Of a DNA stretch of 64,000 nt, positions 482-48,205 are shown in pieces. Each line of letters starts with the position of its first letter. Positions within the stretch are counted from its first letter, which is position 1. The DNA is from Planctomycetota bacterium (lineage in GTDB: Bacteria > Planctomycetota > B15-G4). Made by a program: the position numbers and the translations under genes. The stretch is from contig JAQWOM010000009.1 in the NCBI GenBank assembly GCA_029245865.1, positions 86,398 to 150,397 on the forward strand, read 5' to 3'. Under the pieces are notes generated by a model. The model did no database searches. It was not told the DNA's origin and worked only from the letters and a program-made list of their open reading frames with translations.

Positions 482-1027
482 TCAACGAGCGCCTGGGGAA
501 AAGCCCCGAATCGCCGCAAGAAGGTCCTCTTCGTCCGCCAATCCCCCGACTCCGGTCTCACCGCAGGCCAGGGTTTTTTCCACGGGAGGAACAACCTCGA
601 AACGGCCGGTGCCCTTCAGAACCTCCATGTTCCTCTGAACCAGTGGGTTGTCCCACATGGCGGTATTCATTGCCGGCGCCAGCAAGATGGGCACATCACG
701 ATGAGCTGCGAGAATCACCGTCGAAAGCAAATCGTCGGCCATCCCATGGGCGAAACGCGCGAGGCTATTCGCTGTCGCCGGCGCCACCACAACGAGATCC
801 GGCCAGCGCGCCAGGCGAATGTGGTCAATCTCCTCGGTCGACTCATCGAAAAGCGAAGAACCCACGGGGCGACCGGACAGCGTGGCAAAGGTGAGAGGCG
901 TGACAAATCGAGTGGCTGCTGGCGTCATGACGACAGAGACCTCATCGCCCGCCTCGCAAAGGCGCCGAACGAGGTCGCAGGCTCGATAAGCAGCGATTCC
1001 ACCGCAAACCCCAAGCAGGACTTTCAT
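482..1027 (-). CDS. coaC: Phosphopantothenoylcysteine decarboxylase (flavoprotein, stand-alone CoaC)
   Basis: 181 aa. MKVLLGVCGGIAAYRA...PAMNTAMW is the flavoprotein/CoaC N-domain pattern of Dfp. The start ATG overlaps the coaB stop (ATGA at 1024..1027). Confidence 0.85.
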   Translation of the reverse strand: MKVLLGVCGGIAAYRACDLVRRLCEAGDEVSVVMTPAATRFVTPLTFATLSGRPVGSSLFDESTEEIDHIRLARWPDLVVVAPATANSLARFAHGMADDLLSTVILAAHRDVPILLAPAMNTAMWDNPLVQRNMEVLKGTGRFEVVPPVEKTLACGETGVGGLADEEDLLAAIRGFSPGAR

Positions 1028-1683
1028 GAGAGCACCTGCCCGCGATCCGCACTGCCTACAGGCCCGGCGTCGCGACTCAGTAACTGCGCCAGCCCGGTCG
1101 CAATCGCAGCCTTGCCATCAAAGCGTTCCCGCATGCCCTCTGGCCCCACGAGCAATGCCTGATGGTCTTCTTCTCCTAGCTGCGTCACATCGTTTGCCAG
1201 GACCCAGTTCAGTTGCGCTCGCGTTCTCAGCGCCTGGGCGGCCTCCACTCGCTCGGCTTCCGTGGCGCCGGCCGTGAGCTTGAATCCCACAATCCATGCG
1301 TCCTGAGCCAACCCCCGCAGCCGGTCAATCAACTTGGGTGCCCGCTTGAGATGAAGCGTCATCGTCTCGGCATCGGACGAAAGCTTTCCGGATTCGCGAA
1401 TCGGCAAGTAATCCGCCACTGCAGCGGCATGAAACACCGCATGCACATGTGGGACATGCCGATCCAGCAAGCCGGACAGCTCCTCCGTGGTTTCAAACTC
1501 CACGCACTGTGCGGGTCCATCTGGCCTCGCAGCTCCCTTCCCATGGAGCAAGGTCACCTGGTGGCCATGATCCGAAAGAGTGTCTGCCAACTGCGCACCG
1601 AGTCGGCCTGTACTGCGATTCGTCAGAACGCGCACATCATCGACAGGTTCCCGGGTTCCACCGGATGTCACGAGGACATGCAC
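1024..1683 (-). CDS. coaB: Phosphopantothenate--cysteine ligase (stand-alone CoaB)
   Basis: 219 aa. VTSGGTREPVDDVRVLTNRSTGRLG and ANDV motifs match the CoaB half of Dfp (E. coli [25 protein letters not shown] ... ANDVS). Confidence 0.85.
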   Translation of the reverse strand: MHVLVTSGGTREPVDDVRVLTNRSTGRLGAQLADTLSDHGHQVTLLHGKGAARPDGPAQCVEFETTEELSGLLDRHVPHVHAVFHAAAVADYLPIRESGKLSSDAETMTLHLKRAPKLIDRLRGLAQDAWIVGFKLTAGATEAERVEAAQALRTRAQLNWVLANDVTQLGEEDHQALLVGPEGMRERFDGKAAIATGLAQLLSRDAGPVGSADRGQVLS

Positions 1684-1697
1684 CAGCGTGACTCCGT

Positions 1698-2441
1698 CTA
1701 CTTCGTCTGCCGGTAAGAGCCATCAACACTGAAAGTGTTGGTGTCTGGATTGCTCGACGTGACCAGCACGTCATCCAAGGCCCAGATGCCTCCCACCTGG
1801 CCAGTTCGCCGCAGGAAGTGGATGGAAGAGACGCTCAATGTCGCCACGCTTATCGTTCCCGAGGCTGTGACCTCGTCCGAAGAGCCCTTCATGATCAGCT
1901 TCCACTTCTGGCCGCCGAGCGAGTTCGTCTCCAGCGTGATGTGCACTTGCACGCCCACTTCGCCCGACCCCAGGGGCAGTTCGACAACCTGCCCACCGAC
2001 AACCACATGTCGATCGTCCTTGAACTGGAGACCCAGGATATCCGTGTCTCCCACATCCGAGAGAATCACATCAAGGTCACTGAAGTTGCCGATCGCCTCG
2101 AGAGTGAAGGTGACGTGCGTGGTCTGAGCCGTGACCGGCTTGGTCAGCTGGCAAATCAGGTCAGCATCCACCGAACCGGGGTTCGGTTGAATCATCACCT
2201 CGCCATCTTCAGGCACCGGGAAGGCGACCTCGAAAATATTCAGTGGCCCCTGAACAGTTGCGGAACCGCCAAACGCCTTCCAGGTCTGATTGCCACTTCC
2301 GGTCGGAAGTCCCGGCTCGTTGAAACTCGCGAAGTAGTTGAGCGTCCCAGACCACATGAAACCGGAGACCGGCAGGCAGAGCACGGCCAAGGCCAGCGCT
2401 GCAGGCAACAACACGCGGTTGCGGGAGGTCAGGAGTCTCAT
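1698..2441 (-). CDS. Hypothetical secreted protein (signal peptide)
   Basis: 247 aa. N-terminal MRLLTSRNRVLLPAALALAVLCLPVSG is signal-like. No recognizable family. Lies immediately downstream of the giant kinase/sigma-54 activator gene on the same strand. Confidence 0.55.
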   Translation of the reverse strand: MRLLTSRNRVLLPAALALAVLCLPVSGFMWSGTLNYFASFNEPGLPTGSGNQTWKAFGGSATVQGPLNIFEVAFPVPEDGEVMIQPNPGSVDADLICQLTKPVTAQTTHVTFTLEAIGNFSDLDVILSDVGDTDILGLQFKDDRHVVVGGQVVELPLGSGEVGVQVHITLETNSLGGQKWKLIMKGSSDEVTASGTISVATLSVSSIHFLRRTGQVGGIWALDDVLVTSSNPDTNTFSVDGSYRQTK

Positions 2442-2606: not shown

Positions 2607-5600
2607 CTAGACGTTCAGCCTCTCGATCATCTTGTAAAGACTGCGCACGCTCACTCCCAGAGAGCGAGCGGCCTGAGCCTTATTTCCATCAGAAACCATC
2701 AATGCATCCCGAATCGCCTGGCGCTCAAAGTCATCCAAACGAGCTTTCAACGGGTTTTCCGAGGCTTCGGCCTGATCCGGGAACTCGGCCCTCGCGAGCT
2801 CTCCGAGCCCCGCCGAGGGTTCGCCCCCTGCGTCTCTGACCTGCATGGCCTGGCGCACGGTGTCCACATCAATCCGTCGGTCATCCCGCCCAAATAACAA
2901 CATCGTCATGACGAAATTCTCGAGTTCGCGGACGTTGCCGGGCCACGCATAGCGCTCGAGCAGCGCCAAACCCTCGGCCTCAAGCACGATGTTCTTGGCT
3001 CCGTGTCGTTCGAGAAAATGGGGAACCAGCAAAGCGATGTCCTCGGAACGCTCGCGCAAGGGCGGCAATTCGATACGGGCCACGTCGAGCCGGTAGAGAA
3101 GGTCCTCTCGGAATTCTCCCGTCTCAATCATCGCCCGTAGATTTCGGTGCGTCGCGCAAAGGATGCGTACATCCACCTTCCGCACTTCGCGTCCACCCAC
3201 CGGAATGAACTCGCCTTCCTGAAGAACGCGCAAAAGGCGTTTCTGAACTTCGAGGCTCATGTCCCCGATCTCATCCAGAAACAACGTTCCTCCATCGGCC
3301 TGAGCAAACAGGCCATCGCGGTCTCGGTCTGCGCCAGTGAAGGCGCCTCGCACGTGACCAAAAAGCTCACTCTCTGCCAGATTCTCCGGAAGCGCGGCGC
3401 AGTTAAGCGTCAGGAAATTCTTGTTCCGGCGCGCCCCGTTGAAATGAATCGCACGAGCCATGAGCTCCTTGCCCGTGCCACTTTCGCCGTAGATCACCAC
3501 CACGAAATCGGTGTCTGTCACACGGTCCATCATGTCGAGAAGCGCGTGCATACGAGGGCTTCGCGTGACGATGTTTCCATAGTCGTAACGCAAGGCCAGC
3601 GCGCGCCGACTGCTTTCGAGAGACTCTCGAGTCTCTTCAAGCTCAGCTTCCCGCTGCTCAAGTCGCTCCTGAAGTGCGTCATTCAGGCGATCGACTTCCT
3701 CGCGACTCGAACGAAGCTCCTTGTTCGATTGATTCAATCCATCTGAGAGCCGCGCATTCTCAATGGCAATCGCGGCCTGTTCAGAAAGCGAACTCACCGT
3801 GGCGAGGTCGCTCGCCTGGAAGCACCCGACCACTTGAGGGTGATCAAGATAGAGAGCCCCCAAGATGCTCGAGCGCCCGCGCAGCGGCACACAGAGGATC
3901 GAGAGTAGCTTCAACTCCGTGATACTCGCGGCACTCGCCAAGCGCTCGTCATCAATGGCATTTGCCGTGAGCAACGATTCCCCTCCGCGAGCAACCCCCC
4001 GGGCCACTGAATGGCTCACCTGAAAGTGCGGGTCGCGAATGGTGCTTTCGTCAATATTACGAGCAGCGCGAAACTCCTCGGCCTGCCCCTTGAACAGAAT
4101 GATGAACCCGCGCGCCGCGCCTGTGAGGTCAATCGCACTGTCGACGATAAGGTCGAGTAACTTCTGGTCATCGCGTTCGGTGGCCAGCAGCTTGTTGATC
4201 TCGACAAGCCGCTCGAAGTCCCGCATGCGGCGCGCCATGGCACCGAGTCCGTTGCTCTCCGTATTGTCATCCATGGCGGCGATCCGCTGCTCCAGTTGTC
4301 TCAGCGTACCCTCAAGCGGCTTGAGTCCGAATCGATCGACCAACTCTCGGATTCGATCCCCATCCGGAACAGCTCGTGAAACGAGATCTCCGATGAGAGC
4401 AAAATCTGGGTCCTCATTGTCACGAGTCTCATGAAGTCGGCCGAGGTCCAGCTTGAGACGCTCAAGGAGCACACGTGCTTCGACGGGCCCCGAGGGCGTC
4501 TCGCCGAGTATCGCAAGCGCCAGGCTGAGATCCTCGTGGGCCTCCTGGATCTTCCCGTCTTTCACACGTGATTCAGCCCGAGCCAGTGCGAGGTCTGCGA
4601 CCTCCGGACAGCGCTCCATGGCAGCAATATCCTCGTTTTCCAGGTTGGAGCCACCAGACCGTGCGAGGAGTTGAAGCGCCAGAATTCGCTCCGTATCGAC
4701 CCCACGCGATTCCGCCAGGTCGTGCGCGTGGGAGGCAGCAACAAGAGCCTCCTCGGAACGGCCCTCGGCCAGAGCCAACCCCGCCGCCAAGAGACTCCCC
4801 TCAGCTTCCCAGCCCCGACCATCGACTTCTTCTGCGCACTGCTGCGCACACAAGAGATCTGCTCGAGTTCCCTCGAGGTCACCGCGGGCAAGTCGAATCG
4901 GTCCGCGAGCCAAGGCAACCGCTGCGCGGCCCCCTGCGTCCGCCTTTTCGGTGCGAATGCGGAAGCTTTCCTCGAAAGACTCTTCGGCTTCCTCAAGGCG
5001 CCCCTCTGCCGCCAGTGCCATCGCGAGATTGTTCAAAGCACGCGCCACCTGCACCTCGTTGTCCATGGCCCGCGCCAATCTCAAAGCGCGATCAAAGAAC
5101 CGCCGTGCCGCATCCACACGACCCAATTCCAGACTCGACGACCCGGCACCAAACAACACCGTGACAAGCCGATATCTCTGCCCATAGACATCGCAAAGGC
5201 GCACAGCTTCTTCCTGGAGTGCGAGGCCTCGCTTACGCTCCCCACGTTTCCACACTGCGCGCCCGAGGTCGAAGGTCACGCTCCAGCGGTGTACATCCAG
5301 TGAGAGCGTGTCGATCATGCCCAGGCAACGCTCATGGGTCCGTATTGCGTCCGATGGATTTCCCAGGCGGAACTCAAGCGTGGCCAATCGATGCAGGAGC
5401 GTGATGGAGCGAAAAGACTCAACATCCCCCTGCCTTCGGAGGGCCTCTCGTAGGTCAGCCATGGCTTCCTCTAATCGGCCAAGGCGTCGCAGCAAATCAC
5501 TCCGCAACTGCAAGCTGAAGACAGCTTCTTCCTGCTCCAAGCCCTCCAGGTCGAGAGCGCCCAACAACTCGAGGCCGTCCTCCACCTTCCCGGTCATCTC

Positions 5601-7709
5601 CAGAATGCGCGCCTGGGAGAGCGCCCATGACCAATCATCTGGCATCTCGGCACGAGCAACATCGAGAGCTTCTTGCGCTTCCTCGAGCCGCGTCGCAAGC
5701 GTCAGCGCTTCGATCAATTCGCGATGAAAGCGACCTCGCTCAAGACTGCCCAGCAGACTGCCGTCGAGCCCCCGTCGCAGCAAGGCCGTCAAACGTTGAT
5801 AGCGCCCCAGGCGGCGGAAAACAGCCGCGGCGCGCAAGACGACTTGCGCCACCTCGGCAGACTCAGTGCCACCCCCCGACTCATTCATGGACGAAGAGTG
5901 CTCGCCCAAGATCTCAGCCACTGCCGAAGCCAGCGATTCGGGCAGCGGCGCGAGAGCTTCAAGATCTACGGACAAGCCCTGGTCGCTTCCCCCTTCAGCG
6001 TCGTGCTGCTTGACCAGTTGCAACGCACAAGCCTCACGCAGGTCAGGGCTGAGGGGAATATGTGCAAGAAGCCGCCGGCGCAGCCGCCCATCCGACAACT
6101 CGTACATGGGCTCCGGGTGCAAGGCCGGCTGAAATGTGAAGCCTGCTGCACTGATCTCAGACAACGCTTCATCCGTCGCCGGACCGAGCAGCGCATGCAA
6201 CGTCGATCGCCGAAGAGACCAGGGGCTTACAGCCAACAAGGCCAGCAGTTCGCGACCATCCAACGACACGCCCTGCGCCGGATCGTCCCCTTCTGACATG
6301 GGCCAGCTTGCATCAAGCCGGCTCTCGTCATAACTGAGCCCTGCAGGTCCCAGGCCAACAACACCGGTGCGCACAAGTTCTGCCAACGCGTGACCCAACT
6401 CTTTCCATCGTTGTGGAGTCGCTGCCGTCAGTCGCTCTTCGAGGAGTTTCCGCTCGCCTAGCCATGCGCGACAAACAGCACGAGCCTCTTCATCCGTGGG
6501 TGCCGGCTCCAGGTAGACGGTGACACGCGGGATGGCGCGCAACGCTTTTTGCACCGCCTGTTGTTCCGCATCACCAGAAAGTCGTGCCCCTAGATCCACG
6601 ACCAACGGCCCCCTCTTGGCCAAGGCTTCCGCAAGCAGTGCGATCTCGGAGGGCGAAGCTGGAAACGAGGCCTCTTCTCCCAATCGCGCCTGCACCACCT
6701 CGCCCGGCTCGGGAAGGCTGGCAGCGTAATTCAGCAAGATCTCTTGTGCCTCTGACATCTCGAAGGGGCCGCTCGGTGCCAGGTGAATCGGCATCGCCCC
6801 GGACTTCAGCGAAGCCACCCCCCTCGCCCGACATGGGTCTGCCGCCGTCCGTGCAGACCAGAGTTGGGTGTACAACTGAGCGTCCGCCAAGACCCGGGCT
6901 TCTCGCTCGTCGTGAACTGGCAAAGAAGCCATGGCCGCTGCAGCATCAGCCGGGCGAGAGCTTGGATCTGGAGCCAGCAGTCGCTCCAGCAAGACCACCA
7001 GAGCGGGCTCTCCCAATCGCGCAGCGTCATCCTGAGTGAAGCCCGTGAAAGCAGATCGCTCAGCCGCCATCGCGACCGGGTCACGACCGACAAACAACCT
7101 TCGACCCAGGAGAGCTTCCGTCAACAAAAGCCCCGCCGCCCACAGATCGCTGGCCCGAGAAGGCACTCCACCAGCAAACAACTCCGGCGCCATGTTCCGC
7201 GGCGTGCCAGCGAGCGAGCAATCCGCGACCTCGCTCTCCAGGCAGGCCAGACCAAAATCGATCACAACCGGGTGACCGGTTTGCAGCTCCAGCAAGACAT
7301 TGCTGTCTTTGAGATCCCTGTGAAGCAACCCGGCAGAATGAATCGCCCCAACCGCCGAGAGGAACCGCGCCACGAGCACGCGACGCGCACCCTGATCGAC
7401 CATCTCCGGCCCCAGGGCTCCAGGGCCGAGAGGCTGCCCTCTCACTTCACTGGTGATAGTGAACAGATCCCCTGTCGCCGGATGACGGCCCGCATCCAGG
7501 CAGGCTGAAATTCCGGGATGACGAAATCCCAAGAAAAGAGTCTCGGTGAGCCCTTGCTCTTCTTCGAGAGCGCCCTTGTGCGATTTGAAGACAAGGTGTC
7601 GACCACTTGCATCCCGTGCATGGCGTAATCGAAGTGTCGTGTCCTCAAGAGGACCCAACAGAAGATAGGGGCCGAGACGTTCAGAAGGAGGAGGACTCAT
7701 AATGCTCAC
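2607..7709 (-). CDS. Multidomain regulator: Ser/Thr protein kinase - linker - TPR repeats - GAF - sigma-54 interaction AAA+ domain - Fis-type HTH (1700 aa)
   Basis: Single uninterrupted ORF. N-terminus has kinase motifs HRDLKDSNVLL, DFG and APE (about nt 6880-7670). The long middle is TPR-like and helical. GAF-like segment (LTGAARGFIIL...AIENARL) at about nt 3800-4300. Sigma-54 activator domain with Walker A GESGTGKE, intact GAFTGA (ESELFGHVRGAFTGA) and Walker B FLDEIG at about nt 2880-3620. C-terminal HTH (KAQAARSLGVSVRSLYKMI). Confidence 0.85.
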   Translation of the reverse strand: MSIMSPPPSERLGPYLLLGPLEDTTLRLRHARDASGRHLVFKSHKGALEEEQGLTETLFLGFRHPGISACLDAGRHPATGDLFTITSEVRGQPLGPGALGPEMVDQGARRVLVARFLSAVGAIHSAGLLHRDLKDSNVLLELQTGHPVVIDFGLACLESEVADCSLAGTPRNMAPELFAGGVPSRASDLWAAGLLLTEALLGRRLFVGRDPVAMAAERSAFTGFTQDDAARLGEPALVVLLERLLAPDPSSRPADAAAAMASLPVHDEREARVLADAQLYTQLWSARTAADPCRARGVASLKSGAMPIHLAPSGPFEMSEAQEILLNYAASLPEPGEVVQARLGEEASFPASPSEIALLAEALAKRGPLVVDLGARLSGDAEQQAVQKALRAIPRVTVYLEPAPTDEEARAVCRAWLGERKLLEERLTAATPQRWKELGHALAELVRTGVVGLGPAGLSYDESRLDASWPMSEGDDPAQGVSLDGRELLALLAVSPWSLRRSTLHALLGPATDEALSEISAAGFTFQPALHPEPMYELSDGRLRRRLLAHIPLSPDLREACALQLVKQHDAEGGSDQGLSVDLEALAPLPESLASAVAEILGEHSSSMNESGGGTESAEVAQVVLRAAAVFRRLGRYQRLTALLRRGLDGSLLGSLERGRFHRELIEALTLATRLEEAQEALDVARAEMPDDWSWALSQARILEMTGKVEDGLELLGALDLEGLEQEEAVFSLQLRSDLLRRLGRLEEAMADLREALRRQGDVESFRSITLLHRLATLEFRLGNPSDAIRTHERCLGMIDTLSLDVHRWSVTFDLGRAVWKRGERKRGLALQEEAVRLCDVYGQRYRLVTVLFGAGSSSLELGRVDAARRFFDRALRLARAMDNEVQVARALNNLAMALAAEGRLEEAEESFEESFRIRTEKADAGGRAAVALARGPIRLARGDLEGTRADLLCAQQCAEEVDGRGWEAEGSLLAAGLALAEGRSEEALVAASHAHDLAESRGVDTERILALQLLARSGGSNLENEDIAAMERCPEVADLALARAESRVKDGKIQEAHEDLSLALAILGETPSGPVEARVLLERLKLDLGRLHETRDNEDPDFALIGDLVSRAVPDGDRIRELVDRFGLKPLEGTLRQLEQRIAAMDDNTESNGLGAMARRMRDFERLVEINKLLATERDDQKLLDLIVDSAIDLTGAARGFIILFKGQAEEFRAARNIDESTIRDPHFQVSHSVARGVARGGESLLTANAIDDERLASAASITELKLLSILCVPLRGRSSILGALYLDHPQVVGCFQASDLATVSSLSEQAAIAIENARLSDGLNQSNKELRSSREEVDRLNDALQERLEQREAELEETRESLESSRRALALRYDYGNIVTRSPRMHALLDMMDRVTDTDFVVVIYGESGTGKELMARAIHFNGARRNKNFLTLNCAALPENLAESELFGHVRGAFTGADRDRDGLFAQADGGTLFLDEIGDMSLEVQKRLLRVLQEGEFIPVGGREVRKVDVRILCATHRNLRAMIETGEFREDLLYRLDVARIELPPLRERSEDIALLVPHFLERHGAKNIVLEAEGLALLERYAWPGNVRELENFVMTMLLFGRDDRRIDVDTVRQAMQVRDAGGEPSAGLGELARAEFPDQAEASENPLKARLDDFERQAIRDALMVSDGNKAQAARSLGVSVRSLYKMIERLNV

Positions 7710-7757
7710 GAAGATACGCTGGTTACCTTTGATAGAGAATCTACCGGAAGTCTCACC

Positions 7758-9266
7758 ATGAAGGCGGTTACCCGAGGACTCTTCATTCTGCTGTTTCTTG
7801 CCACAACGCTGTCAGCAGACATCATCCACTACAAAGACGGCCGAAAGCTTGAGGGGGTGATTCTCCAGCGCACGGCCGATGTGGTGAAGATCGACACAAA
7901 ATTCGGGACCATATCGGTCGAGACGGCCAAGATTGCACGAATCGAAGAATCTCTCACGCCAGCCCAGGAACTCGCTCAACGCCGGGCGCAAGTGGCGGAC
8001 GGGAATGCGGAGGCAATCTTTCAATTGGCCCTCTGGGCCGACGAGCATTCCCTGCGCCAGGAGTCCAAAGCCCTGCTCCTTGAAGTGATCGCAGCAGATC
8101 CGTCTCACACGAGAGCGAACGAACGACTCGGGCGTGTCGAAGTCGACGGCACCTGGTTGGAGCCAGGTGAAGTCGACCAATACCTGGCCAAGGTCGCCGA
8201 CGAGAAACGCGCACTCGGTCTCGAGTTTCACGAGGGAGAGTGGTTGCCCATGGCTGAGGTCATGACAGCCCGCGGCTTTCTGGAGTACGAGGGAGAGTGG
8301 CTACCCCGTCGAGAAGCGGACACGCGACGTGCCGTCGAAGACCTCGCAAGCATGGCCGACTACACATGCTCTGCAACTGCCGGCGAGTACATCACCATCT
8401 TCAGCTCCGATCTCAGCAGCGAGACCATCGAGTCACTTATTTACGACCTCGATGCCATGACACGAGATTTCCTGGAACGACTACAACTCAATCAAACCGA
8501 GATCGACCAGGTCACGAAGTACGCCATCCCTCTCTTCCTGCTGCCCGACATCGAGACGTCGGACCGAATCGTTCAAAGCGGGTTCACACGACGGTTCGTT
8601 CACCTGGAAGATGACATCCAGGATTTCCTGGACAGCTATTCGTACGGACTGCAATGGCCGCGCCCCTTGCTGGTCAATGTCGAAGGAAATTATCTGGACG
8701 CCTCCGGGAATCGCGACCAACTGCGCACGGGCATTCTGAGTCACCAACTTGCAGAACTTCTGGTCGAGCGACTGAAAGGGGTTCGTGACCCACCCGCCTG
8801 GGCGAAAGCTGGCCTAGCAGCCTTCTACGAAGGGGCCACCAACTACTACTCGACAACGACACTGACCTCGAGCAACCCTCTCAAGGACGGCGTGCCGACG
8901 GGACTCTGGGTGCCAGGCTGGGAGAACTTCCCCGAGTGGCGTGACAACCTCCGGGACGAGGGCATGCAGTCCACAGTTCGCTCTCTCTCGCCCACGTGGA
9001 CTCAATCCACCAAGTCCATGAACTCACGCGATGTCGGTCTTTGCTGGAGCTTTGTCAGTTTCCTGCTAGATCAGCACCCCACGGAGTTCTCGGAGTTCCT
9101 CCGCGTTTATGACAGCGACACCGGCGCCAACCGAGCGCTTCGCCGCATGCACGAACGCGCCTGGACGCGCGCCTTCGCGTCAGACGAGACCCAAATCGAA
9201 CGTTCCTGGCGAAACTGGGCGCTCGCGCGGCCAAGGTCTTTCCCTACCGACATCTTGAATCGGTAG
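7758..9266 (+). CDS. Hypothetical secreted protein with triplicated (D/E)G(E/T)WLP motifs
   Basis: 502 aa. Signal peptide MKAVTRGLFILLFLATTLSA. Three short repeats: VDGTWLEPGEV, HEGEWLPMAEV, YEGEWLPRREA. No confident family assignment. Confidence 0.6.
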   Translation: MKAVTRGLFILLFLATTLSADIIHYKDGRKLEGVILQRTADVVKIDTKFGTISVETAKIARIEESLTPAQELAQRRAQVADGNAEAIFQLALWADEHSLRQESKALLLEVIAADPSHTRANERLGRVEVDGTWLEPGEVDQYLAKVADEKRALGLEFHEGEWLPMAEVMTARGFLEYEGEWLPRREADTRRAVEDLASMADYTCSATAGEYITIFSSDLSSETIESLIYDLDAMTRDFLERLQLNQTEIDQVTKYAIPLFLLPDIETSDRIVQSGFTRRFVHLEDDIQDFLDSYSYGLQWPRPLLVNVEGNYLDASGNRDQLRTGILSHQLAELLVERLKGVRDPPAWAKAGLAAFYEGATNYYSTTTLTSSNPLKDGVPTGLWVPGWENFPEWRDNLRDEGMQSTVRSLSPTWTQSTKSMNSRDVGLCWSFVSFLLDQHPTEFSEFLRVYDSDTGANRALRRMHERAWTRAFASDETQIERSWRNWALARPRSFPTDILNR

Positions 9267-13022: not shown

Positions 13023-15944
13023 TCAGGGCACCCGGACTCGAAGCCGTCCCAGCACCTCAGCCCACGGCGAACCCACCGGCAACTGGTCCAGAAGCTGGTC
13101 TGCAATTGGCCCGGCATCGGCGTCCTTCTCGAGCAATCCGAGCCCCACAGCCTGCAGATCCGGCAAACCCTTGCCATCCGTCTGATCGAGCAGTCGCCTG
13201 AGCATCCGCGCTGCGCCCTCATCCCGGCCGGCAAGCAACAAGGCCGTCCCGTAGTCGAGAAGCACCGCCCGGTCGGCCGGCTGAACGGCATACACCTGCC
13301 CCAGCAGATCCGCAGCCTCTTCAACCATCTCCATCTGAAGAAAGAGTTTGCCGAGCACACCTGCCAGAGCCGCATCGTTCATCACTTCAAGTGCCGCACT
13401 GAGTAAATGAGCACCTTTCAGGGCGTCACCCTGCACCGCGAGACTCCGCGCCCACTCGACCAGTGCGCGACGAACATCAGCGTGCCCTGGTGCCACCCGC
13501 CAGGCTTCGATGAGTGACGCAGACGACAGCACTTCGAGAGGACCGCGCTGGTCTTCTCCGGACACCGGAAGACGGGACCACTGCAGCATCGCGGCTCGCG
13601 CCAGCAACAAGCCCTGCAAGGCACCGCTGCGAGCTCTGAGCTCGACCCCCAGATACTTATCTTCTCGAGGGTCGATGGGTGGCCGGTCGAGAGATGACGT
13701 GTCCAGAGGAGTCGTCAACTCGGACAGCAAACGCATGTTGGTGGCACCGATCCATGCTTCATCATCATGACGACCGAGACTTTCGATCTCCGAGACAGGC
13801 CGTGCACGCGTCGCAGGTTCCACATCCATGAAGGACGTGCCGAGTCCCCAGGAGTCTGTCACATACAGATCGTAGACATCCGCAACCGTGTGTGGGCCCA
13901 GGGGCGAAGGAGAGGAGGCCAGCAACTCGTTGATTCGATCTCCTCGTGGAAGACCACGGACCATCCCCCCCACAAGAGCAACCAGCGGACGGTTGGCCAG
14001 AGGCGTCGCAACGAACAGTCGCGCCGTGGGGAAGACGTCCAGAAAGGCTTGTGTCACGGCCCCGAACGCCGGCCATGGGATCTGGTGCAAGGGCAGCCAC
14101 TGCACGACAACGCCCTCAGGTTTCAGCGCACGGCGAAGCGCAGAAAAGCTTTCTCGCGCCAGCAAATCGCCTGCGCCGGTCACCCACGGGAAATACAGGT
14201 CGCCCACGATCAGGTCATAGGTGTCCGGATGCTCCGCGACCCAGGTTCGGGCGTCGGCGTGCACGATCGTCGGAGGCTCCGCAAGGGGTCCCACACCGTC
14301 CGTGTCCGGAAGATCCAGGCCGAGTTCCAGAATCTGTGCATTGCGTTCCACGCATTCCACCTGAGCAGCGGTGGTCGATGCGAAACCGGCCAACGTCTGT
14401 CCGCGCCCCAGTCCCAGAACCAGCGCGCGCTCCGCATCCGGATGAAAACACGCCGCGAGACGACCCATTCTCTGCTCAAGCGCCGCTCCGGCGGAACCGC
14501 CCAGCCCGAAACGGTTGTCGAGCTTCAACCTCAACTCCCCATCCTGGGTGGTCACCAGGCTCACCACGCCATAGGGCCCTTCAAGCTGCCGAACAAGTCG
14601 TGCATCCTCTGCATCAGCTCGCCACGGCATCTGCATGATCGGCATTCGCCAGGCCAGAGTGGCTCCCGCGGCCAGCAACAACAGGACGAACACTGAAGAG
14701 GCTCGATGCCGTGGCCCACCGAGTCCACGCAGCGCGAGAAACGCCCCCGCGGCGAGAGCAAGCGTCGTCATGAGTTGCAACGCGGGGCCCGTCCCCCATG
14801 CAGGTGACGGAACAAGCCACATGCCGTAGCCATAGCCGCCTGCCACTCCACCCAGCGTGGACCAGGCCGCCAGGTCTCCGACCCACGAACCGAATCGACC
14901 TGCCTCTCGCGTCCGAGAACGACTGGCTGCCGTGACGAGAGAGCCCGCCCCCACTCCAAGAATCACGGTGGTCACCAGCGGAAGCTCCCACCCGCTCCAG
15001 CTGATGAACGCGCCAGGAAACGATTGTGTGATCGCGGGCATGAGCAGAGCCATACCCGCCAGACCCAGCAGCAGAGCCACCAGTCCGCGCGCTGCGAACC
15101 ACGCCAAAGGACACGCCATCCACAAGGCTCCGGCAGCCATGCCCAAGTGAACGCCGACCAGAACCCGTGATGTCGTGATGACGCTGTCCCCCGCTTGCTG
15201 AGCGATCACCCGCAGGATGGCGAGTTGACCGCCGACCAGCAGGGCGCCTCCGAGGAAGGCCGCAAGACCCAGGTCGAACCCTCGAGAGACCTGCTCTGCC
15301 TCTGCTTCTGCCTCTACTGCGACGGCGGGGCACGGAGGTTCCACAGGCATCACTCTCTGTGCCACTTGCAACGCCCAGGCTAGAAGGGCCCCCGCGGCCA
15401 GCGCTGCCGCCGCAAGGGTGCCGGGTGCGCCACCACCTTGAAAAAGGGGCACCCACCACCACGCACCCAGGGCGCCACCCAGTCCAACAGCCACCGCCAC
15501 CCCCCCGGTGGCACGCGCCGGCAACAAACCCTCTGCGCGACGCAAACGTGTGAAAAGCGGGAACGCCCCGCCGAGACCAAATGCCGCCGGGACAACCGGG
15601 ACCCCGCCCAGCGCGAGACGCATCCAGACCGCGTTGACCGAACCGGAGAGTGGCAAGAGTTCCATGAGCCAGGGCACCGCCAGCACGGCGAGCGCCGAGG
15701 CCCCGAGCCAGCGGGCTGCAAGCCCGAGGTGTTCTTGAGTCTGCGACTCGCGGCGGTCGGCGAGACGACCCGCCACCATCGACCCTGCGCTCCACGCCAG
15801 CATGAACACGGGCACGACAAGAGCCGCAGCAGGAACGCTCCCGGGTAGCGCGGCAGCGGCCGAGCGCAACCACGTCAGTTCCAGCAGAGTGCTCGCCAAA
15901 CCGGCCAGAAGCGCACTGATCAAACAGAGTAAAGAGGCATTCAC
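13023..15944 (-). CDS. Fusion protein: polytopic membrane domain + spermidine synthase-like methyltransferase domain + C-terminal TPR
   Basis: 973 aa. About 440 aa of TM helices, then the SpeE-like core (LVLGLGRGQTLAGF...LIVGDLYFPW...LKPEGVVVQWLPL), then TPR-like C-terminus. Confidence 0.7.
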   Translation of the reverse strand: MNASLLCLISALLAGLASTLLELTWLRSAAAALPGSVPAAALVVPVFMLAWSAGSMVAGRLADRRESQTQEHLGLAARWLGASALAVLAVPWLMELLPLSGSVNAVWMRLALGGVPVVPAAFGLGGAFPLFTRLRRAEGLLPARATGGVAVAVGLGGALGAWWWVPLFQGGGAPGTLAAAALAAGALLAWALQVAQRVMPVEPPCPAVAVEAEAEAEQVSRGFDLGLAAFLGGALLVGGQLAILRVIAQQAGDSVITTSRVLVGVHLGMAAGALWMACPLAWFAARGLVALLLGLAGMALLMPAITQSFPGAFISWSGWELPLVTTVILGVGAGSLVTAASRSRTREAGRFGSWVGDLAAWSTLGGVAGGYGYGMWLVPSPAWGTGPALQLMTTLALAAGAFLALRGLGGPRHRASSVFVLLLLAAGATLAWRMPIMQMPWRADAEDARLVRQLEGPYGVVSLVTTQDGELRLKLDNRFGLGGSAGAALEQRMGRLAACFHPDAERALVLGLGRGQTLAGFASTTAAQVECVERNAQILELGLDLPDTDGVGPLAEPPTIVHADARTWVAEHPDTYDLIVGDLYFPWVTGAGDLLARESFSALRRALKPEGVVVQWLPLHQIPWPAFGAVTQAFLDVFPTARLFVATPLANRPLVALVGGMVRGLPRGDRINELLASSPSPLGPHTVADVYDLYVTDSWGLGTSFMDVEPATRARPVSEIESLGRHDDEAWIGATNMRLLSELTTPLDTSSLDRPPIDPREDKYLGVELRARSGALQGLLLARAAMLQWSRLPVSGEDQRGPLEVLSSASLIEAWRVAPGHADVRRALVEWARSLAVQGDALKGAHLLSAALEVMNDAALAGVLGKLFLQMEMVEEAADLLGQVYAVQPADRAVLLDYGTALLLAGRDEGAARMLRRLLDQTDGKGLPDLQAVGLGLLEKDADAGPIADQLLDQLPVGSPWAEVLGRLRVRVP

Positions 15945-20554: not shown

Positions 20555-20650
20555 AGGCTTCACGCGAGCGAGAGTGGGCTCAACTCCGGAACCCCTTTGG
20601 GTCGAGAAAGAGTCTCCGTATCCCCGTCTCACCGACCGTGGAGTTCCCTC

Positions 20651-21319
20651 ATGGGTGCTACGCACGTCCTTCCACCTCCGCTTGATGCCGCCTGCTCCCA
20701 TGGGCACCCCCTCGAACTGTGGATTCTCGTCAATGGCGAGATCGTTCAATGTGCGGGAAGCTTCATGCGTACCGACAACTTCGGGAGGCCCCAGGTCTCG
20801 GCGACGTTACCCGAAGATTTTACGGGCAGCGTGCGTAATGGAGCGGCCGTGCGCGGCTTCTTTACCGATGACAGCGGTCAAGTGCACACCTTCCTCACGT
20901 CTATCAACGACTGGCAGGCTTACAGCGATCGCCCGAGTGCAGCAAAAGTTGTTCTTGAGACACCAACCGCCGTGGCTCCATGCCAACGTCGTCGTGGACT
21001 TCGCCAGCCAACCAAGCCAATCCCCGTGAGCTTGATGGTAAACATTCGTGGTGAGTCCGAGGCGGCAACAGGTCGTATCGTGGACGTCTCTCCCACGGGG
21101 TTTGCCGTGCGCGTCGTTCGTGCCGCACGCAACTGGTTCGCCGAAGGCACTCTTCTGAGTGTGGAACTCGACGTGGGCGATGGCGAGTTGACTTCGCTGG
21201 CCGTAACGGTTGCGCGGGTCGAGCGAGAAGCGTTGCATTACCTCTACGGTTTGCGCGTGAACAACTCGGCCGAGCGTCGAGCGCTGCAAGACATTCTCGA
21301 CGAGTTGCTTACCGTCTGA
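20651..21319 (+). CDS. PilZ domain protein (c-di-GMP binding)
   Basis: RxxxR (RRRGLR) and DxSxxG (DVSPTGFAV) PilZ motifs. Start chosen at ATG 20651 with GGAG 7 nt upstream. Alternative start 20597. Confidence 0.65.
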   Translation: MGATHVLPPPLDAACSHGHPLELWILVNGEIVQCAGSFMRTDNFGRPQVSATLPEDFTGSVRNGAAVRGFFTDDSGQVHTFLTSINDWQAYSDRPSAAKVVLETPTAVAPCQRRRGLRQPTKPIPVSLMVNIRGESEAATGRIVDVSPTGFAVRVVRAARNWFAEGTLLSVELDVGDGELTSLAVTVARVEREALHYLYGLRVNNSAERRALQDILDELLTV

Positions 21320-21339: not shown

Positions 21340-24300
21340 CTACTCAGGCCCCACCGTGAAGAGAAGCATGGCGCTGTGTGACCAGTCGTCAATGACGCCG
21401 TTGTTTTCCTGGACCACCAGTTGAGTCCAGATTTGCAGCCCCTCCGGACCAAGCGTCGGCGAGTGGTTGAGTTGGAGAGCCACTTCGTCCTGCCCCACGA
21501 CAATCACATTGATGATCACGGCAGGCATGGGACCCAGCAGCCCGCCGAAGAAGGGCGCCAGAGGGTCGAAGAGATCGAAGCCCATGAACCCCACGGCAAA
21601 CTGAGCTTCCGCAGCAGGCCAGCCTTTCATCAGGATGAGTGCCTGACCGTTCGGCCGATAGTCGCCCGCCGCAATGAGTTCAGGAACACCACCAAAGCCT
21701 GCGTTTTCGGTGTCGCGAATGGTCTGGAAGTCACTCGCCTCATACGTAAAGCCATCGACCAGGGAGACAACGCCTTCGTCGGTCGTCACGCGCACATCCA
21801 CAGCAACATCCGACGGCCCCAGGAGGTGGTAGGGCAAGTTGACCGTGACAATCTCGCCGACGATTCCGGTCACTTCCGCGACTTCGAATCCGACCACAGC
21901 ATTGCCGAACTCCACCACCGTTTCCGGTGGAGCTGAACCCGAGGTCGTCGCGACCGTCACTTCCACAGGGTAGTCCGGCTCCCCAAAATAGCTGAAGCCA
22001 GGAGTACCGTTCGGCACATTGATGCCCGCGGCCTGGGGGCCCGTATTCGGAGAGACGGCCGACACAACAAATGCCTGAACGGTCACAGCATCGGGCAGCG
22101 ACCCAGAGCCATTGCTGGTGGTGAACTCTATGTCGAGCGGAATGTTCTGAGCCAGACCCTCGGGAGTTGTCACGCTGAAAGTCCCGGCAAGCGGATCGCT
22201 CTCCGAAACCGTGGCCCCGACTCCACCCACTGTCACAAACATGTTTTCAGGAGAAGACACGGCCAACCCCGTGAAAGCCATGTCGAGATTGGGTGTCACG
22301 ACGGAAGGCTCTGGGCCTGTCACAGTGGAAAAGGGGATGTAAGTGAAGGCATCGGGCAGAGCCAAGGCTGCGCCACCGGCGACGACAGCCACGTCCACCG
22401 AGTCACCGTCTCCTGGAAAGAGAGGGCTCGGCACCGCGACCTCGATCGTATAAGGGTCGCTGCCCGTCACGCCGAGAATCGTGCCGGCCACTCCGTCGAA
22501 GGTCACCAGCAGATCAGTCGCTGAACCGGTGACTGTCACAAAGACCGAGGGGCCCTCGAACCAGGACGAGGAAGGCGAAACATCCGTCACGGTGATGAAG
22601 GGGCCAAAGATGACCTGCCCACGCCCCGTCTTGCTGAATGCCAGCCCGGTCGGATCGAGTGGCGACGGATCAGAGGGCGCCCCCGAGGCGCCGATCAGCA
22701 AATCCATGACGCCGTCATCGTTCGCATCACCAGCCGCCAGCGACGACCCCCCATGAGCGCCAAGGGCCTCGCCGTACAGCCGCAACAGTTCGATACCTGC
22801 CAGGCTTCCCGCCAAGTCAATCGTATGTTGAGTCGAGGGGTCGAGAGCAGCACCGCTGAGGTAGCTTGCGAAGCCCCCTTCGGTGATGACTGATCCATTC
22901 ACCAGCACGCTTGCCGCGGGGAATCCCACGGCGAGGTCGGGCTCCCCATCGAGGTCGAAATCGCCAACACCACTGGCGAACACACCACGAACTCCGTCCT
23001 GGGTTCCGGCACCGAAGATGCGTATGGCAGAAAGACCATCGCCCGGGCCGACGTTCCCGAGATCAAATCCCGTGGGATTGGCGCCGTTCAATCGTCCGGG
23101 CACAATGTAGTGCACACCCGTATCCGGACGTCCTGGACCATCATCGAAAGGCGCACCGATCACGAGTTCGACGAAGCCGTCGTCACCGAAGAGGTCTCCG
23201 GCAGAATGAAGCATGGCGCCGGCTTGGTCTCCCGTGGCACGCCCCAGGTAGGTGTGCCCCGCCGAGTCCCCACCCGAGAAATCCGAGGCATCCAGCGACT
23301 CGGCCAGCGGGCCAGAGACCTGCCCGCGCACGACGTAGACGGCGCCCCCAAACAGTCCGCCCGGAACCAACGTCCCTGGCGCACCCAGGGCAACATCGTC
23401 CCCGTCAACGAGGTCTTCGGCTCCGCCTGTCCCTGGCAATACGGGATCGAAACGCCCCAGTCCGACCACAGCCGAACCGAGAAACTGGAAGTCCGTGGCG
23501 CCTTCGACCTCCGTGATCTCACCCGCACCAAGCGTTGCGAGATCGACAACACCCGCTCCCTTGAATGCCGGGTTGCCGTACACAATCGAGGCCGAGCCGT
23601 TCTGCATCAATCCATTCGTAGAATCCAGTGGCGCGCCAATCACGAGATCTGAAAGGCCATCAGCATCTACGTCAACATTTCCGCCGACCGCAGCGCCTGC
23701 CTGCCCAAAGGTGCGCGCGCCCACGAAACGCGTTGCGCGCCCCGTGTCGAGCAGACTCTTGAGGCTCTGGTCGACATCCTGACTTGGCCAGTCCATGGCG
23801 CCCCAAAGCACATACGCTGAACCCGAACCAGGCCGACCAGGCTGATTGAATCCTGGAGCGCCGATCAGAAGATCGTCGAACCCGTCTCCATCAACATCAC
23901 CGGCGCACGCCAGGGCGCTTCCGGCGAGATCATCCACACGCCCGCGGAAGTCGACCCCCTCTCCAACAGCCAGCGAGACGAGATCCAGATCCGGGTCACT
24001 GCCTGCGGCCCCGGCATCTGCCGAACCAAAGATGACGTAGACGTGGCCCGCATCGATCAGTTCCGCGATCGACGGAACGCCGGGTTCGTCGGGCGCTCCA
24101 AAAACATAGTCATCGAAACCATCACCGTTGAGATCAACCCAAGCAGCCGTGGCGCCCAAGGAACCGACGACCGGCATGACCGGACTCCCCACGAGTCCCC
24201 CCTCACCCAGAATGACTTCCCCACGTCCGCCAGAAATGCTGCGCAGGCCCAGGCTCTCCTGAGCCGAGAGGCTCGTGGCGAGCAGTAGCGAGGTGAAGAG

Positions 24301-24363
24301 CAACGCCACGCAACGGACTGGCGTCACGACACCGAAAATCGAGCGGGAGGGGAGAAACACCAT
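21340..24363 (-). CDS. Secreted FG-GAP repeat (integrin-alpha-like beta-propeller) protein with C-terminal Ig-like/IPT-like domains
   Basis: Signal peptide (MVFLPSRSIFGVVTPVRCVALLFTSLLLATSLSAQ). Repeated DLNGDGFDD, GDVDGDGFDDLLIGAP, DVDADGLSDLVIGAP FG-GAP/Ca-binding motifs. Start placed at the internal Met preceding the signal peptide (ORF-track start 24435). Confidence 0.75.
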   Translation of the reverse strand: MVFLPSRSIFGVVTPVRCVALLFTSLLLATSLSAQESLGLRSISGGRGEVILGEGGLVGSPVMPVVGSLGATAAWVDLNGDGFDDYVFGAPDEPGVPSIAELIDAGHVYVIFGSADAGAAGSDPDLDLVSLAVGEGVDFRGRVDDLAGSALACAGDVDGDGFDDLLIGAPGFNQPGRPGSGSAYVLWGAMDWPSQDVDQSLKSLLDTGRATRFVGARTFGQAGAAVGGNVDVDADGLSDLVIGAPLDSTNGLMQNGSASIVYGNPAFKGAGVVDLATLGAGEITEVEGATDFQFLGSAVVGLGRFDPVLPGTGGAEDLVDGDDVALGAPGTLVPGGLFGGAVYVVRGQVSGPLAESLDASDFSGGDSAGHTYLGRATGDQAGAMLHSAGDLFGDDGFVELVIGAPFDDGPGRPDTGVHYIVPGRLNGANPTGFDLGNVGPGDGLSAIRIFGAGTQDGVRGVFASGVGDFDLDGEPDLAVGFPAASVLVNGSVITEGGFASYLSGAALDPSTQHTIDLAGSLAGIELLRLYGEALGAHGGSSLAAGDANDDGVMDLLIGASGAPSDPSPLDPTGLAFSKTGRGQVIFGPFITVTDVSPSSSWFEGPSVFVTVTGSATDLLVTFDGVAGTILGVTGSDPYTIEVAVPSPLFPGDGDSVDVAVVAGGAALALPDAFTYIPFSTVTGPEPSVVTPNLDMAFTGLAVSSPENMFVTVGGVGATVSESDPLAGTFSVTTPEGLAQNIPLDIEFTTSNGSGSLPDAVTVQAFVVSAVSPNTGPQAAGINVPNGTPGFSYFGEPDYPVEVTVATTSGSAPPETVVEFGNAVVGFEVAEVTGIVGEIVTVNLPYHLLGPSDVAVDVRVTTDEGVVSLVDGFTYEASDFQTIRDTENAGFGGVPELIAAGDYRPNGQALILMKGWPAAEAQFAVGFMGFDLFDPLAPFFGGLLGPMPAVIINVIVVGQDEVALQLNHSPTLGPEGLQIWTQLVVQENNGVIDDWSHSAMLLFTVGPE

Positions 24364-24465
24364 ATGTAGGGGCCGTTTCGGATATGAGGGTCGTGCAGGC
24401 CAACCCTCAGCATGAACGAGAGAAGCGGGAGACACGAGAGACGCACGCGGCCCTGCGTATCCTTC

Positions 24466-46743: not shown

Positions 46744-48201
46744 TCAACGACGCCAAGCAAGGGGAACGAGCAGCACAAGGATGCTGTAGAACTCAAGCCG
46801 CCCCAGCAGCATGGCAAACATGAGGAGTAACTTGGCCGTGCCATCAAACGCGGCGTAGTTGGAACTGGGCCCGACCCCATCTAGCCCTGGCCCGATATTT
46901 GAGAGGCACGAGATCACTGCCGAAAATGAGGTCGCGCCGCTGTGTCCCATGGCCATCAGAATCAACGAGAAGGCCACCAGCGAGAACAGATAGATCACGA
47001 AGAAACCTGCGGTCTTGAAAACCAACTGGTCTGTCAACGGCCGCGGCCCGACCTTCACGACGAAAACCGCTCTGGGTCGCAAGAGTCGAAGTACTTCTCG
47101 CACGCCCGTTTTCACTGCAATCACACAGCGAATGACTTTTGCCCCCCCACCCGTAGAACCAGCACAGGCTCCACAGAACATGAGCAACAAGAGCAATCCG
47201 TGAAGCCCGATGGGCCAGAGCTGGTAGTTGGTTGTGACAAAGCCCGTCGATGTCAGCAGGGACACCACCGTGAAACTGGCGTCGCGCACGAGTGGCTCGA
47301 AGCCTTCCGGCTGACCTGGCTCGCCGCGTAGCGCAATCACGCAAAACAGCGTGGCCAGCACCGCGATCGCTGTGTAAACACGCACTTCGGTGTTCTTCAG
47401 CGCGATCTTGAAGCGACCCTTCACAGCATTGAGCAACATCACGAAGTTCAAACCCGCCAAGAACATGAACAAGATGACCACCCACTGGACTGCCGGGCCA
47501 AAAGAGGCCACAGAATCTGCACGCGTTCCAAACCCCCCTGTCGCCACAGTGGCAAACGTGTAGCAGATAGAGTCGAAGGGCGTCATACCAACAGCCCACA
47601 AGCAGACAAACTGCAGCGCCGTCACAAGAAGGTAGAGCGTCCACAGCATCTTGGCCGTGGATCTGATACGGGGGGCTAGCTTTTCTGATTCAGGCCCCGG
47701 GACTTCTGCCTGAAACAGAAAGTTACCGCCAGCACCCAGCGCGGGCAAAATAGCCACCGACAGAGCGACGATCCCCATGCCACCGATCCACTGGGTCATG
47801 GCACGCCAGAAGAGAAGAGGGCGATCGAGCACTGCGGGATCGGGCAAAATGGATGCGCCCGTCGTGGTGAAGCCAGAGAGAACTTCGAAACACGCGTCGA
47901 CGATTCCAGGGATCTGCCCAGTGATGACAAAAGGCATCGCACCGAGTGCTGTGAAAACCACCCAACTGCCCGTCACGACAGCGAAGGCTTCACCGAAGCC
48001 AAAGCGTTCCTGTTCAAACTCGAAAGAAAGCTGAAGTGCGATTCCGAGGCCAAGGCTTACGGCAGCCGAGACCATGAACGCATGGGCCGTCGGCGTGCCA
48101 AGCCCTCCCTCTCCAATGCACAGCAGCAAGGGCCACAGGAGCAAGAAGAAGAGCAGGATGCAGAGCCGGCCAAGAAGGCATAAGACGGCTTCGATGTTCA
48201 C
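46744..48201 (-). CDS. trkH: Trk-type K+ uptake membrane subunit TrkH (paralog 2)
   Basis: Four selectivity-filter-like motifs (GFTTTGAS, ATGGFGT, TSTGF, GSTGGGAK). Start set at GTG 48201, just after the upstream trkH stop. ORF-track start 48249. Confidence 0.8.
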   Translation of the reverse strand: MNIEAVLCLLGRLCILLFFLLLWPLLLCIGEGGLGTPTAHAFMVSAAVSLGLGIALQLSFEFEQERFGFGEAFAVVTGSWVVFTALGAMPFVITGQIPGIVDACFEVLSGFTTTGASILPDPAVLDRPLLFWRAMTQWIGGMGIVALSVAILPALGAGGNFLFQAEVPGPESEKLAPRIRSTAKMLWTLYLLVTALQFVCLWAVGMTPFDSICYTFATVATGGFGTRADSVASFGPAVQWVVILFMFLAGLNFVMLLNAVKGRFKIALKNTEVRVYTAIAVLATLFCVIALRGEPGQPEGFEPLVRDASFTVVSLLTSTGFVTTNYQLWPIGLHGLLLLLMFCGACAGSTGGGAKVIRCVIAVKTGVREVLRLLRPRAVFVVKVGPRPLTDQLVFKTAGFFVIYLFSLVAFSLILMAMGHSGATSFSAVISCLSNIGPGLDGVGPSSNYAAFDGTAKLLLMFAMLLGRLEFYSILVLLVPLAWRR

Positions 48202-48205
48202 GGGT

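Follow-up and report, generated by a model that had tools for sequence, protein, structure and literature searches.

Bacterial enhancer-binding proteins (EBPs) are the textbook signal-gated AAA+ activators of transcription, and nearly all of those that have been studied take their input, to our knowledge, from receiver, PAS, GAF or V4R domains. The Ser/Thr kinase PknK acts on transcription in trans, through phosphorylation of a regulator. The FHA-domain EBPs of Myxococcus xanthus, attributed to Jelsbak, Givskov and Kaiser in 2005, reportedly tie Ser/Thr-kinase signalling to sigma-54 transcription, the kinase being said to act in trans on an FHA input domain that binds phosphothreonine. Among GAF-containing EBPs, repression of the AAA+ domain by the GAF domain is an established mode in NorR (PMC2941729). 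This article concerns a minus-strand gene in a 64,000-nucleotide stretch of Planctomycetota DNA (positions 86,398 to 150,397 of contig JAQWOM010000009.1, assembly GCA_029245865.1; hereafter the window), whose product is, with high confidence, a genuine kinase-fused sigma-54 EBP. The size of its N-terminal regulatory input, which comprises a kinase, a degenerate STAND arm, a TPR region and a GAF domain, is unusual.

The gene occupies a minus-strand open reading frame (ORF) at 2607..7709 that is free of stop codons throughout and would encode 1700 amino acids (aa) if read from the GTG at 7709. On sequence comparison the true start is likely to be the ATG at 7700, giving 1697 aa, because both P0001, a protein of 1697 aa with 99% identity, and the N-termini of orthologues agree with it. 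The original prediction, which was made from the DNA letters alone, was of a 1700-aa single-ORF fusion of kinase, TPR, GAF, sigma-54 and helix-turn-helix (HTH) domains; the unbroken ORF and its evolutionary conservation bear this out, and the motifs it quoted were all found at verified coordinates (Table 1). The profile scan that it proposed (Pkinase, TPR, GAF, Sigma54_activat and HTH_8) returned every domain, and the AAA lid besides, above its Pfam cut-off and supplied the domain boundaries. A search of a 5.8-billion-protein collection recovered about 20 full-length relatives with 46-87% identity from ENA, JGI, NCBI and Logan assemblies, and a profile of the GAF region, run against a single genome from each species, recovered 12 orthologous loci, all in metagenome-assembled genomes (MAGs) of uncultured Planctomycetota or Phycisphaerales. 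The conserved gene order at these loci runs from RluB, at some remove, through a VWA protein, a 502-aa protein (present at roughly half of them), the EBP gene and a signal-peptide protein of 230-292 aa to CoaB and CoaC. The EBP gene belongs to the core genome of an uncultured Planctomycetota lineage, in which it is inherited vertically and present in one copy. The window accordingly derives from a Planctomycetota chromosome; an origin in Myxococcota, at first suggested by the domain content, was rejected since every close orthologue is from the MAGs just named.

Table 1. Coordinates of the EBP gene, its domains and motifs, and its immediate neighbours in the window
Feature	Position	Strand	Basis or remark
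Whole gene: kinase + degenerate STAND + TPR + GAF + sigma-54 EBP	2607..7700	-	ORF, P0001, full-length tblastn alignments
Hanks-type Ser/Thr kinase domain (aa 8-262)	6924..7688	-	K42, E56, HRDLKDSN, DFG and APE present; glycine-rich loop degenerate
Shrunken alpha/beta core of former STAND NTPase (aa 300-383), contains AKRGPLVVDLGARLSG	6561..6812	-	Alignment of relatives, AlphaFold2
STAND helical + winged-helix arm (aa 384-561)	6027..6560	-	hhalign, AlphaFold2
TPR/alpha-solenoid sensor region (aa 591-1148)	4266..5939	-	Pfam TPRs
GAF domain (aa 1179-1317)	3759..4175	-	Pfam GAF_2, GAF, GAF_3
Single continuous 74-residue helix from GAF to AAA+ (aa 1299-1372)	3594..3815	-	AlphaFold2 model mfdcaf1190f13, helix H200-273
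Sigma-54 interaction AAA+ domain + lid (aa 1380-1628)	2826..3572	-	Pfam, NCBIfam, Foldseek
Walker A GESGTGKE (aa 1408-1415)	3465-3488	-	
GAFTGA (aa 1455-1460)	3330-3347	-	
Walker B FLDEIG	3264-3281	-	
Sensor II GNVREL	2922-2939	-	
Fis-type HTH (HTH_8) DNA-binding domain (aa 1658-1693)	2631..2738	-	Pfam
GTATCTT motif 10 nt 5' of ATG 7700	7711..7717	-	Orthologous upstream comparison
Gene for 247-aa signal-peptide protein, 3' of EBP gene, same strand, conserved neighbour	1698..2441	-	
Gene for 502-aa signal-peptide protein, divergent from EBP gene across 57 bp	7758..9266	+	

The output half of the protein has the domain and motif features of a bacterial EBP, namely a Sigma54_activat domain with Walker A and B motifs, a GAFTGA loop and a C-terminal Fis-type HTH. 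Sigma54_activat (PF00158) matches aa 1380-1546 with an E-value of 1.3e-67 and is followed by AAA_lid_14 at aa 1552-1628. In 20 orthologues the Walker A, ESELFG, GAFTGA, Walker B and sensor II motifs are invariant apart from the first A of GAFTGA, which is at least 90% conserved beside its invariant G, F, T, G and A. By Foldseek, the AAA+ domain matches that of NtrC1 (1ny6) with a TMt of 0.94 and shares 52-53% identity with that of FleQ, while HTH_8 (PF02954) scores 37.4 bits against a cut-off of 22 and is 64% identical among orthologues. The predicted intact GAFTGA module and Fis-type HTH are thus upheld by profile, motif and structure. NCBIfam models of NorR, NifA and NtrC score about 335-342 bits, each under its equivalog cut-off (342.3 bits against 528.85 for NifA, TIGR01817, and 342.3 against 476 for NorR, NF003451), and the protein is therefore a generic sigma-54 activator with no named orthologue.

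Immediately upstream of this module lies the most conserved part of the protein, the GAF region (aa 1160-1320), with a mean pairwise identity of 79% among 18 full-length orthologues; together with the linker helix (74%) and the AAA+ domain (75%) it makes up the most constrained portion of the chain. The GAF block aligns over 188 residues in 20 orthologues without any indel, and GAF_2 scores 50.3 bits at aa 1179-1317 against a Pfam cut-off of 28.6. In an AlphaFold2 model of aa 1100-1700 (pLDDT 88.7) the last helix of the GAF domain is extended into the AAA+ domain as the 74-residue helix of Table 1, which on this model is probably a dimeric signalling helix or coiled coil. The remainder of the protein was modelled from a 69-sequence alignment as aa 4-1160, with a mean pLDDT of 91.3, a pTM of 0.83 and a packed inter-domain geometry.

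At the N-terminus, the Pkinase match (aa 105-254, 78.5 bits against a cut-off of 31.7) covers the C-lobe of the kinase only, and the fold of the N-lobe is confidently modelled by AlphaFold2. The kinase has a profile score above the gathering threshold, a kinase fold and the catalytic residue set, its motifs being HRDLKDSN at aa 130-137, DFG at 151-153 and APE at 174-176. Invariant in the 20 orthologues are H130, R131, D132, K134, N137, D151, G153, the APE and the GT preceding it, D188 (the subdomain IX Asp) and R252 (the subdomain XI Arg); conservation reaches at least 90% at K42, the beta3 Lys, and at E56, the alphaC Glu. What had been described as a full Hanks-type kinase was slightly overstated, in that the Pfam alignment is confined to the C-lobe and GxGxxG is absent, although the catalytic motifs are present as claimed. 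As the catalytic residues are kept while the glycine-rich loop is absent throughout the clade, catalysis is judged plausible yet atypical.

Between the kinase and the TPR region lies what is, from the alignments, the remnant of a STAND module of the AAA_16/MalT/PknK type, in which the P-loop core has decayed and the arm has been preserved. Distant relatives carry PF13191/PF13401 with a canonical Walker A (G-x-G-I-G-K-S/T) and Walker B (hhhhDD). The core of the window protein has neither the Walker A lysine nor the conserved Walker B acid; when aligned with AAA_16-bearing relatives the equivalent positions read SGPFEMSEA and LVVDLGA and are unconserved, and neither GxxGxGK[ST] nor hhhhD[DE], nor any AAA_16 Pfam match in aa 263-560, was found. 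It is modelled as a three-strand beta-alpha-beta unit of about 85 residues, and no other part of the protein varies as much among orthologues, identity here being 35%. The original prediction of a degenerate nucleoside triphosphatase (NTPase)-like region was correct in so far as the region is derived from a STAND/AAA_16 NTPase that has lost its P-loop, but the segment that it quoted, AKRGPLVVDLGARLSG (aa 364-379), corresponds in the alignment to the strand that bears Walker B in STAND relatives, and not to the Walker A/P-loop.

The arm that follows the core, the helical and winged-helix part of a STAND protein, is modelled as helices and beta-hairpins and aligns as a clade profile with AAA_16-bearing relatives over 173 columns (hhalign probability 97.2%, E 3.8e-11). 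A C-terminal repeat sensor of the MalT-like TPR kind is likewise present, with TPR_12, TPR_8, TPR_2 and TPR_1 matches at aa ~730-1010, all above their Pfam cut-offs. Since the P-loop is gone, the STAND module is no longer a nucleotide-dependent oligomerisation switch in the Planctomycetota clade and is probably a rigid platform or scaffold; the TPR solenoid points to a sensor arm of the MalT/PknK type for a peptide, protein or small ligand.

The whole explanation that we favour, with somewhat better than even confidence, is that of a sigma-54 EBP with a large kinase/STAND/TPR/GAF input that works by the mechanism outlined here. The mechanism itself is more tentative. A parallel dimer, formed by the GAF domain together with the 74-residue helix that leaves it, would keep the AAA+ domains inactive, by analogy with the coiled-coil linker control of NtrC1 and DctD and with GAF repression in NorR and NifA. 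A signal would free the AAA+ domains to assemble into a hexamer, which would remodel sigma-54 RNA polymerase and drive open-complex formation at distant promoters. Candidate signals would be the binding of a small ligand by the GAF pocket, occupation of the TPR groove by a peptide or protein, or (auto)phosphorylation in cis or trans by the N-terminal kinase. A bolder version, which is unlikely though of interest, holds that two nucleotide switches, the glycine-rich loop of the kinase and the STAND P-loop, have been made into fixed scaffolds while selection still acts on the catalytic residues of the kinase. A constitutively 'open' STAND-TPR platform would then pre-assemble the EBP, an atypical kinase without its glycine-rich loop would control the assembly of AAA+ hexamers in cis by way of the GAF coiled coil, and the protein would command a lineage-wide regulon that may involve the always-adjacent secreted protein. 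If that were true, the protein would be a new type of sigma-54 activator and would provide a eukaryote-style route from kinase to transcription in one polypeptide.

That the ORF is an assembly or frameshift join of separate kinase and NtrC-like genes was considered only on account of its unusual length and of one short public gene call, and no support for it was found. The same unbroken protein occurs in the independent ENA, JGI, NCBI and Logan assemblies; tblastn gives a single alignment of 1680-1720 aa without a frame change in 11 of the 12 MAG contigs, the twelfth (L009) ending at a contig edge; and the domains of the N-terminal model are confidently predicted to pack together. The short call, P0004 (L001 10001-14866), is a 63%-identical orthologue annotated at 1621 aa that is truncated N-terminally and is without the kinase N-lobe, which tblastn finds encoded in frame from near L001 9731. 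An artefact was rejected on this orthologue evidence, and its chance is negligible. Other observations do weigh against the explanation set out above. Among them is the absence from the kinase of GxGxxG, in place of which stands GPLEDTT, with no glycine pattern kept in any of the 20 orthologues, whereas LGxGxxGxV and VAxK are kept in wider relatives. The acidic activation loop has no Ser/Thr conserved across the same 20 proteins, and owing to these two features the putative kinase activity and control by autophosphorylation are unproven. They would fit a pseudokinase that, with the decayed STAND core, serves only as a scaffold or dimerisation platform, leaving regulation to a TPR partner and a GAF ligand without phosphotransfer. 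The loss of Walker A and B from the neighbouring NTPase in the same clade and the lower conservation of the kinase (52-58% identity among orthologues) than of the GAF and AAA+ domains also favour that alternative. A separate kinase-sigma-54 subfamily (P0063, P0067, P0069, P0070, P0076 and P0077) pairs a beta3 Lys to Arg change with degenerate STAND P-loops; kinase and STAND modules can therefore turn purely structural, and the sequences suggest that both nucleotide sites have decayed repeatedly and in coupled fashion within the family. Yet little or no variation is seen at the beta3 Lys, the HRD and DFG Asp residues, the HRD-loop Lys and Asn, the APE or the subdomain XI Arg, in a domain that is only about 50% identical among orthologues; pseudokinases have usually lost at least one of these, and the N-lobe is modelled with confidence. 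A low-activity or atypical kinase is somewhat likelier than a nucleotide-binding pseudokinase, and a scaffold devoid of phosphotransfer is a possible but somewhat doubtful reading. Further from the kinase, a PDB profile search for a GAF ligand returned only generic GAF domains (the HD-GYP protein 4mcw, PDE10A, PDE5 and DevS), and with the nearest solved structures (4mcw, PDE10A) so generic no ligand can be assigned; the proposed dimerisation through the long helix, for its part, is drawn from the model of a monomer.

The same tally includes the promoters, which bear on the further proposal that the EBP drives one or both of the flanking secreted-protein genes from sigma-54 promoters, as the original prediction had suggested. 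EBP genes often adjoin their targets, as PMC12316311 also notes, and in all 12 loci the EBP gene is separated from coaB by a fast-evolving ORF for a signal-peptide protein. However, a search of both intergenic regions (2442-2606 and 7701-7757, upstream of 2441 and 7758) for the -24/-12 consensus TGGCACG-N4-TTGCW, with GG and GC fixed and up to three mismatches, gave no match, and none was positionally conserved beside the EBP gene in 11 orthologous loci. Across the window, a shuffle-controlled scan at up to two mismatches gave 13 matches against 13.3 expected, which is the level of chance. The divergent intergenic region is just 57 bp long, and the 502-aa gene is absent from about half of the loci (by tblastn it is present in L001/L003, L002, L004, L007, L010 and L013 and not in L005, L006, L008, L011 or L012). 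Regulation of these neighbours by the EBP is thus improbable, although a functional link or co-transcription of the downstream gene with the EBP gene is possible. Also to be counted against the explanation favoured above, no rpoN gene lies within the window; sigma-54 is documented in Planctomycetota (PMC2754498, PMC12316311).

Scans for sigma-70 promoters and terminators at both ends of the EBP gene gave nothing informative. In the window, and in 8 of the 11 orthologous loci, a GTATC[TGC]T motif is found 7-10 nt 5' of the start codon, and two further loci have near-variants of it (GTATTCT, TTATC). The DNA around it is unalignable among loci, and the copy at 7711-7717 is the only intergenic one of eight in the window. 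Going by its sequence and position, it may be a -10-type promoter element of a leaderless or short-leader mRNA, or else a regulator site.

Regarding the neighbours themselves, the downstream secreted proteins have a conserved motif past the signal peptide (e.g., LNYYANFN or LTVHFSASFD), and the 247-aa and 310-aa neighbour proteins match no family in Pfam or NCBIfam even at relaxed thresholds. The 502-aa protein matches none above cut-off in either database; its N-terminus has sub-threshold matches to the Leptospira LA_0442/PTPDL N-terminal domain (~29-30 bits against 43 and 200). CoaC (Flavoprotein, 482-1027, minus strand) and CoaB (DFP, 1024-1683, minus strand) are encoded by separate overlapping genes in place of the usual fused coaBC, and the split is kept in all orthologous loci. 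Further afield, a 973-aa protein (13023-15944, minus strand), which adjoins RluB in orthologous loci, has sub-threshold spermidine-synthase/polyamine aminopropyltransferase matches centrally (NCBIfam, aa 243-645) and sub-threshold TPR matches C-terminally. A PilZ protein is encoded at 20597-21319 and a 1031-aa FG-GAP repeat protein at 21340-24435. An 856-aa protein with TPR and CHAT (caspase-like protease) domains (42242-44812, minus strand) overlaps an upstream RNase D-like gene by 4 nt, and a sigma-54-like match with two mismatches inside the 5' end of its gene (44535-44550) is probably due to chance. Two tandem TrkH genes followed by TrkA lie at 46744-51156 (minus strand), and housekeeping genes of the window include those for GlnE, AroB, AroK, DprA, Lgt and Trk.

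The rarity implied by the original prediction does not hold. About 80 of the 120 best database matches combine Pkinase and Sigma54_activat, in Myxococcota, Acidobacteria and other Planctomycetota, and with at least ~80 protein clusters across several phyla sharing a kinase and a sigma-54 AAA+ domain the architecture is a recurring rather than a one-off one. Examples from Nannocystis, Polyangiales, Myxococcales, Acidobacteria and Planctomycetes are named 'sigma 54-interacting transcriptional regulator' by NCBI. Full-text searches aimed at the architecture found no description or experimental characterization of it in the literature covered; myxobacterial genome and kinome surveys reportedly mention such fusions. 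The same kinase-AAA_16-TPR-GAF input is found with other outputs, including HisKA/HATPase (P0107, P0112, P0116 and P0117), GGDEF (P0106), HD-GYP (P0102) and STAS (P0114). In Ca. Uabimicrobium amorphum it is joined to a SpoIIE phosphatase in a 1679-aa protein, with the kinase at 14-260, AAA_16 at 288-457, TPRs at 734-1031 and GAF at 1287-1422 (PMC11032199). The kinase-AAA_16-TPR-GAF arrangement is a reusable input unit. As the architecture is already abundant in public databases, the window protein is an uncharacterized member of a modular kinase-STAND-TPR-GAF-output family and not a new class.

Its interest lies chiefly in the long GAF-AAA+ helix and in two losses peculiar to the clade, that of the glycine-rich loop from the kinase and that of the P-loop from the STAND module, details that yield specific biochemical predictions. 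The Planctomycetota clade offers a natural experiment in which both loops have degenerated and selection still maintains the catalytic residues and the output. A kinase-STAND-TPR-GAF input in cis would show how one chain can bring the phosphorylation of Ser/Thr, the sensing of proteins or peptides and the sensing of small ligands to bear on sigma-54. For annotation, the gain is a kinase-fused sigma-54 activator that is free of frameshifts and tractable for biochemistry.

Compared with its nearest counterparts, the window protein resembles the kinase-sigma-54 fusions of other phyla in carrying PF00069, PF01590, PF00158 and PF02954, those proteins spanning 1400-2170 aa. Identity with them is 36-46% in the GAF and AAA+ halves and about 20% in the N-terminal halves, and most of them retain GxGxxG, VAxK and the STAND Walker A and B motifs, whereas the window clade is without GxGxxG and Walker A and B. 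Its input unit has the same order as, and a spacing similar to, that of the Uabimicrobium SpoIIE protein and of the cyanobacterial HstK-type Ser/Thr-His kinases. From these it differs in its output, a sigma-54 AAA+ domain with HTH, and in that its clade has lost the glycine-rich loop from the kinase and the P-loop from the STAND module. With NifA, NorR and FhlA it has in common the order GAF, sigma-54 AAA+ (GAFTGA) and Fis-type HTH, the NCBIfam NifA model aligning over aa 1165-1699 and the NorR model over 1352-1700; unlike them, it has about 1150 additional N-terminal residues (kinase, STAND remnant and TPR) and a 74-residue helix in place of a short linker. No FHA domain is found in it by Pfam, and its kinase is in cis, in contrast to the FHA EBPs of M. 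xanthus. The N-terminal half is most like PknK and MalT in kind, yet it fails the motifs that define their NTPase: M. tuberculosis PknK and MalT have a working P-loop, whereas the window protein has lost Walker A and B. PknK, in turn, has neither a GAF domain nor a sigma-54 AAA+ domain, while the window protein unites kinase and transcription activator in a single chain.

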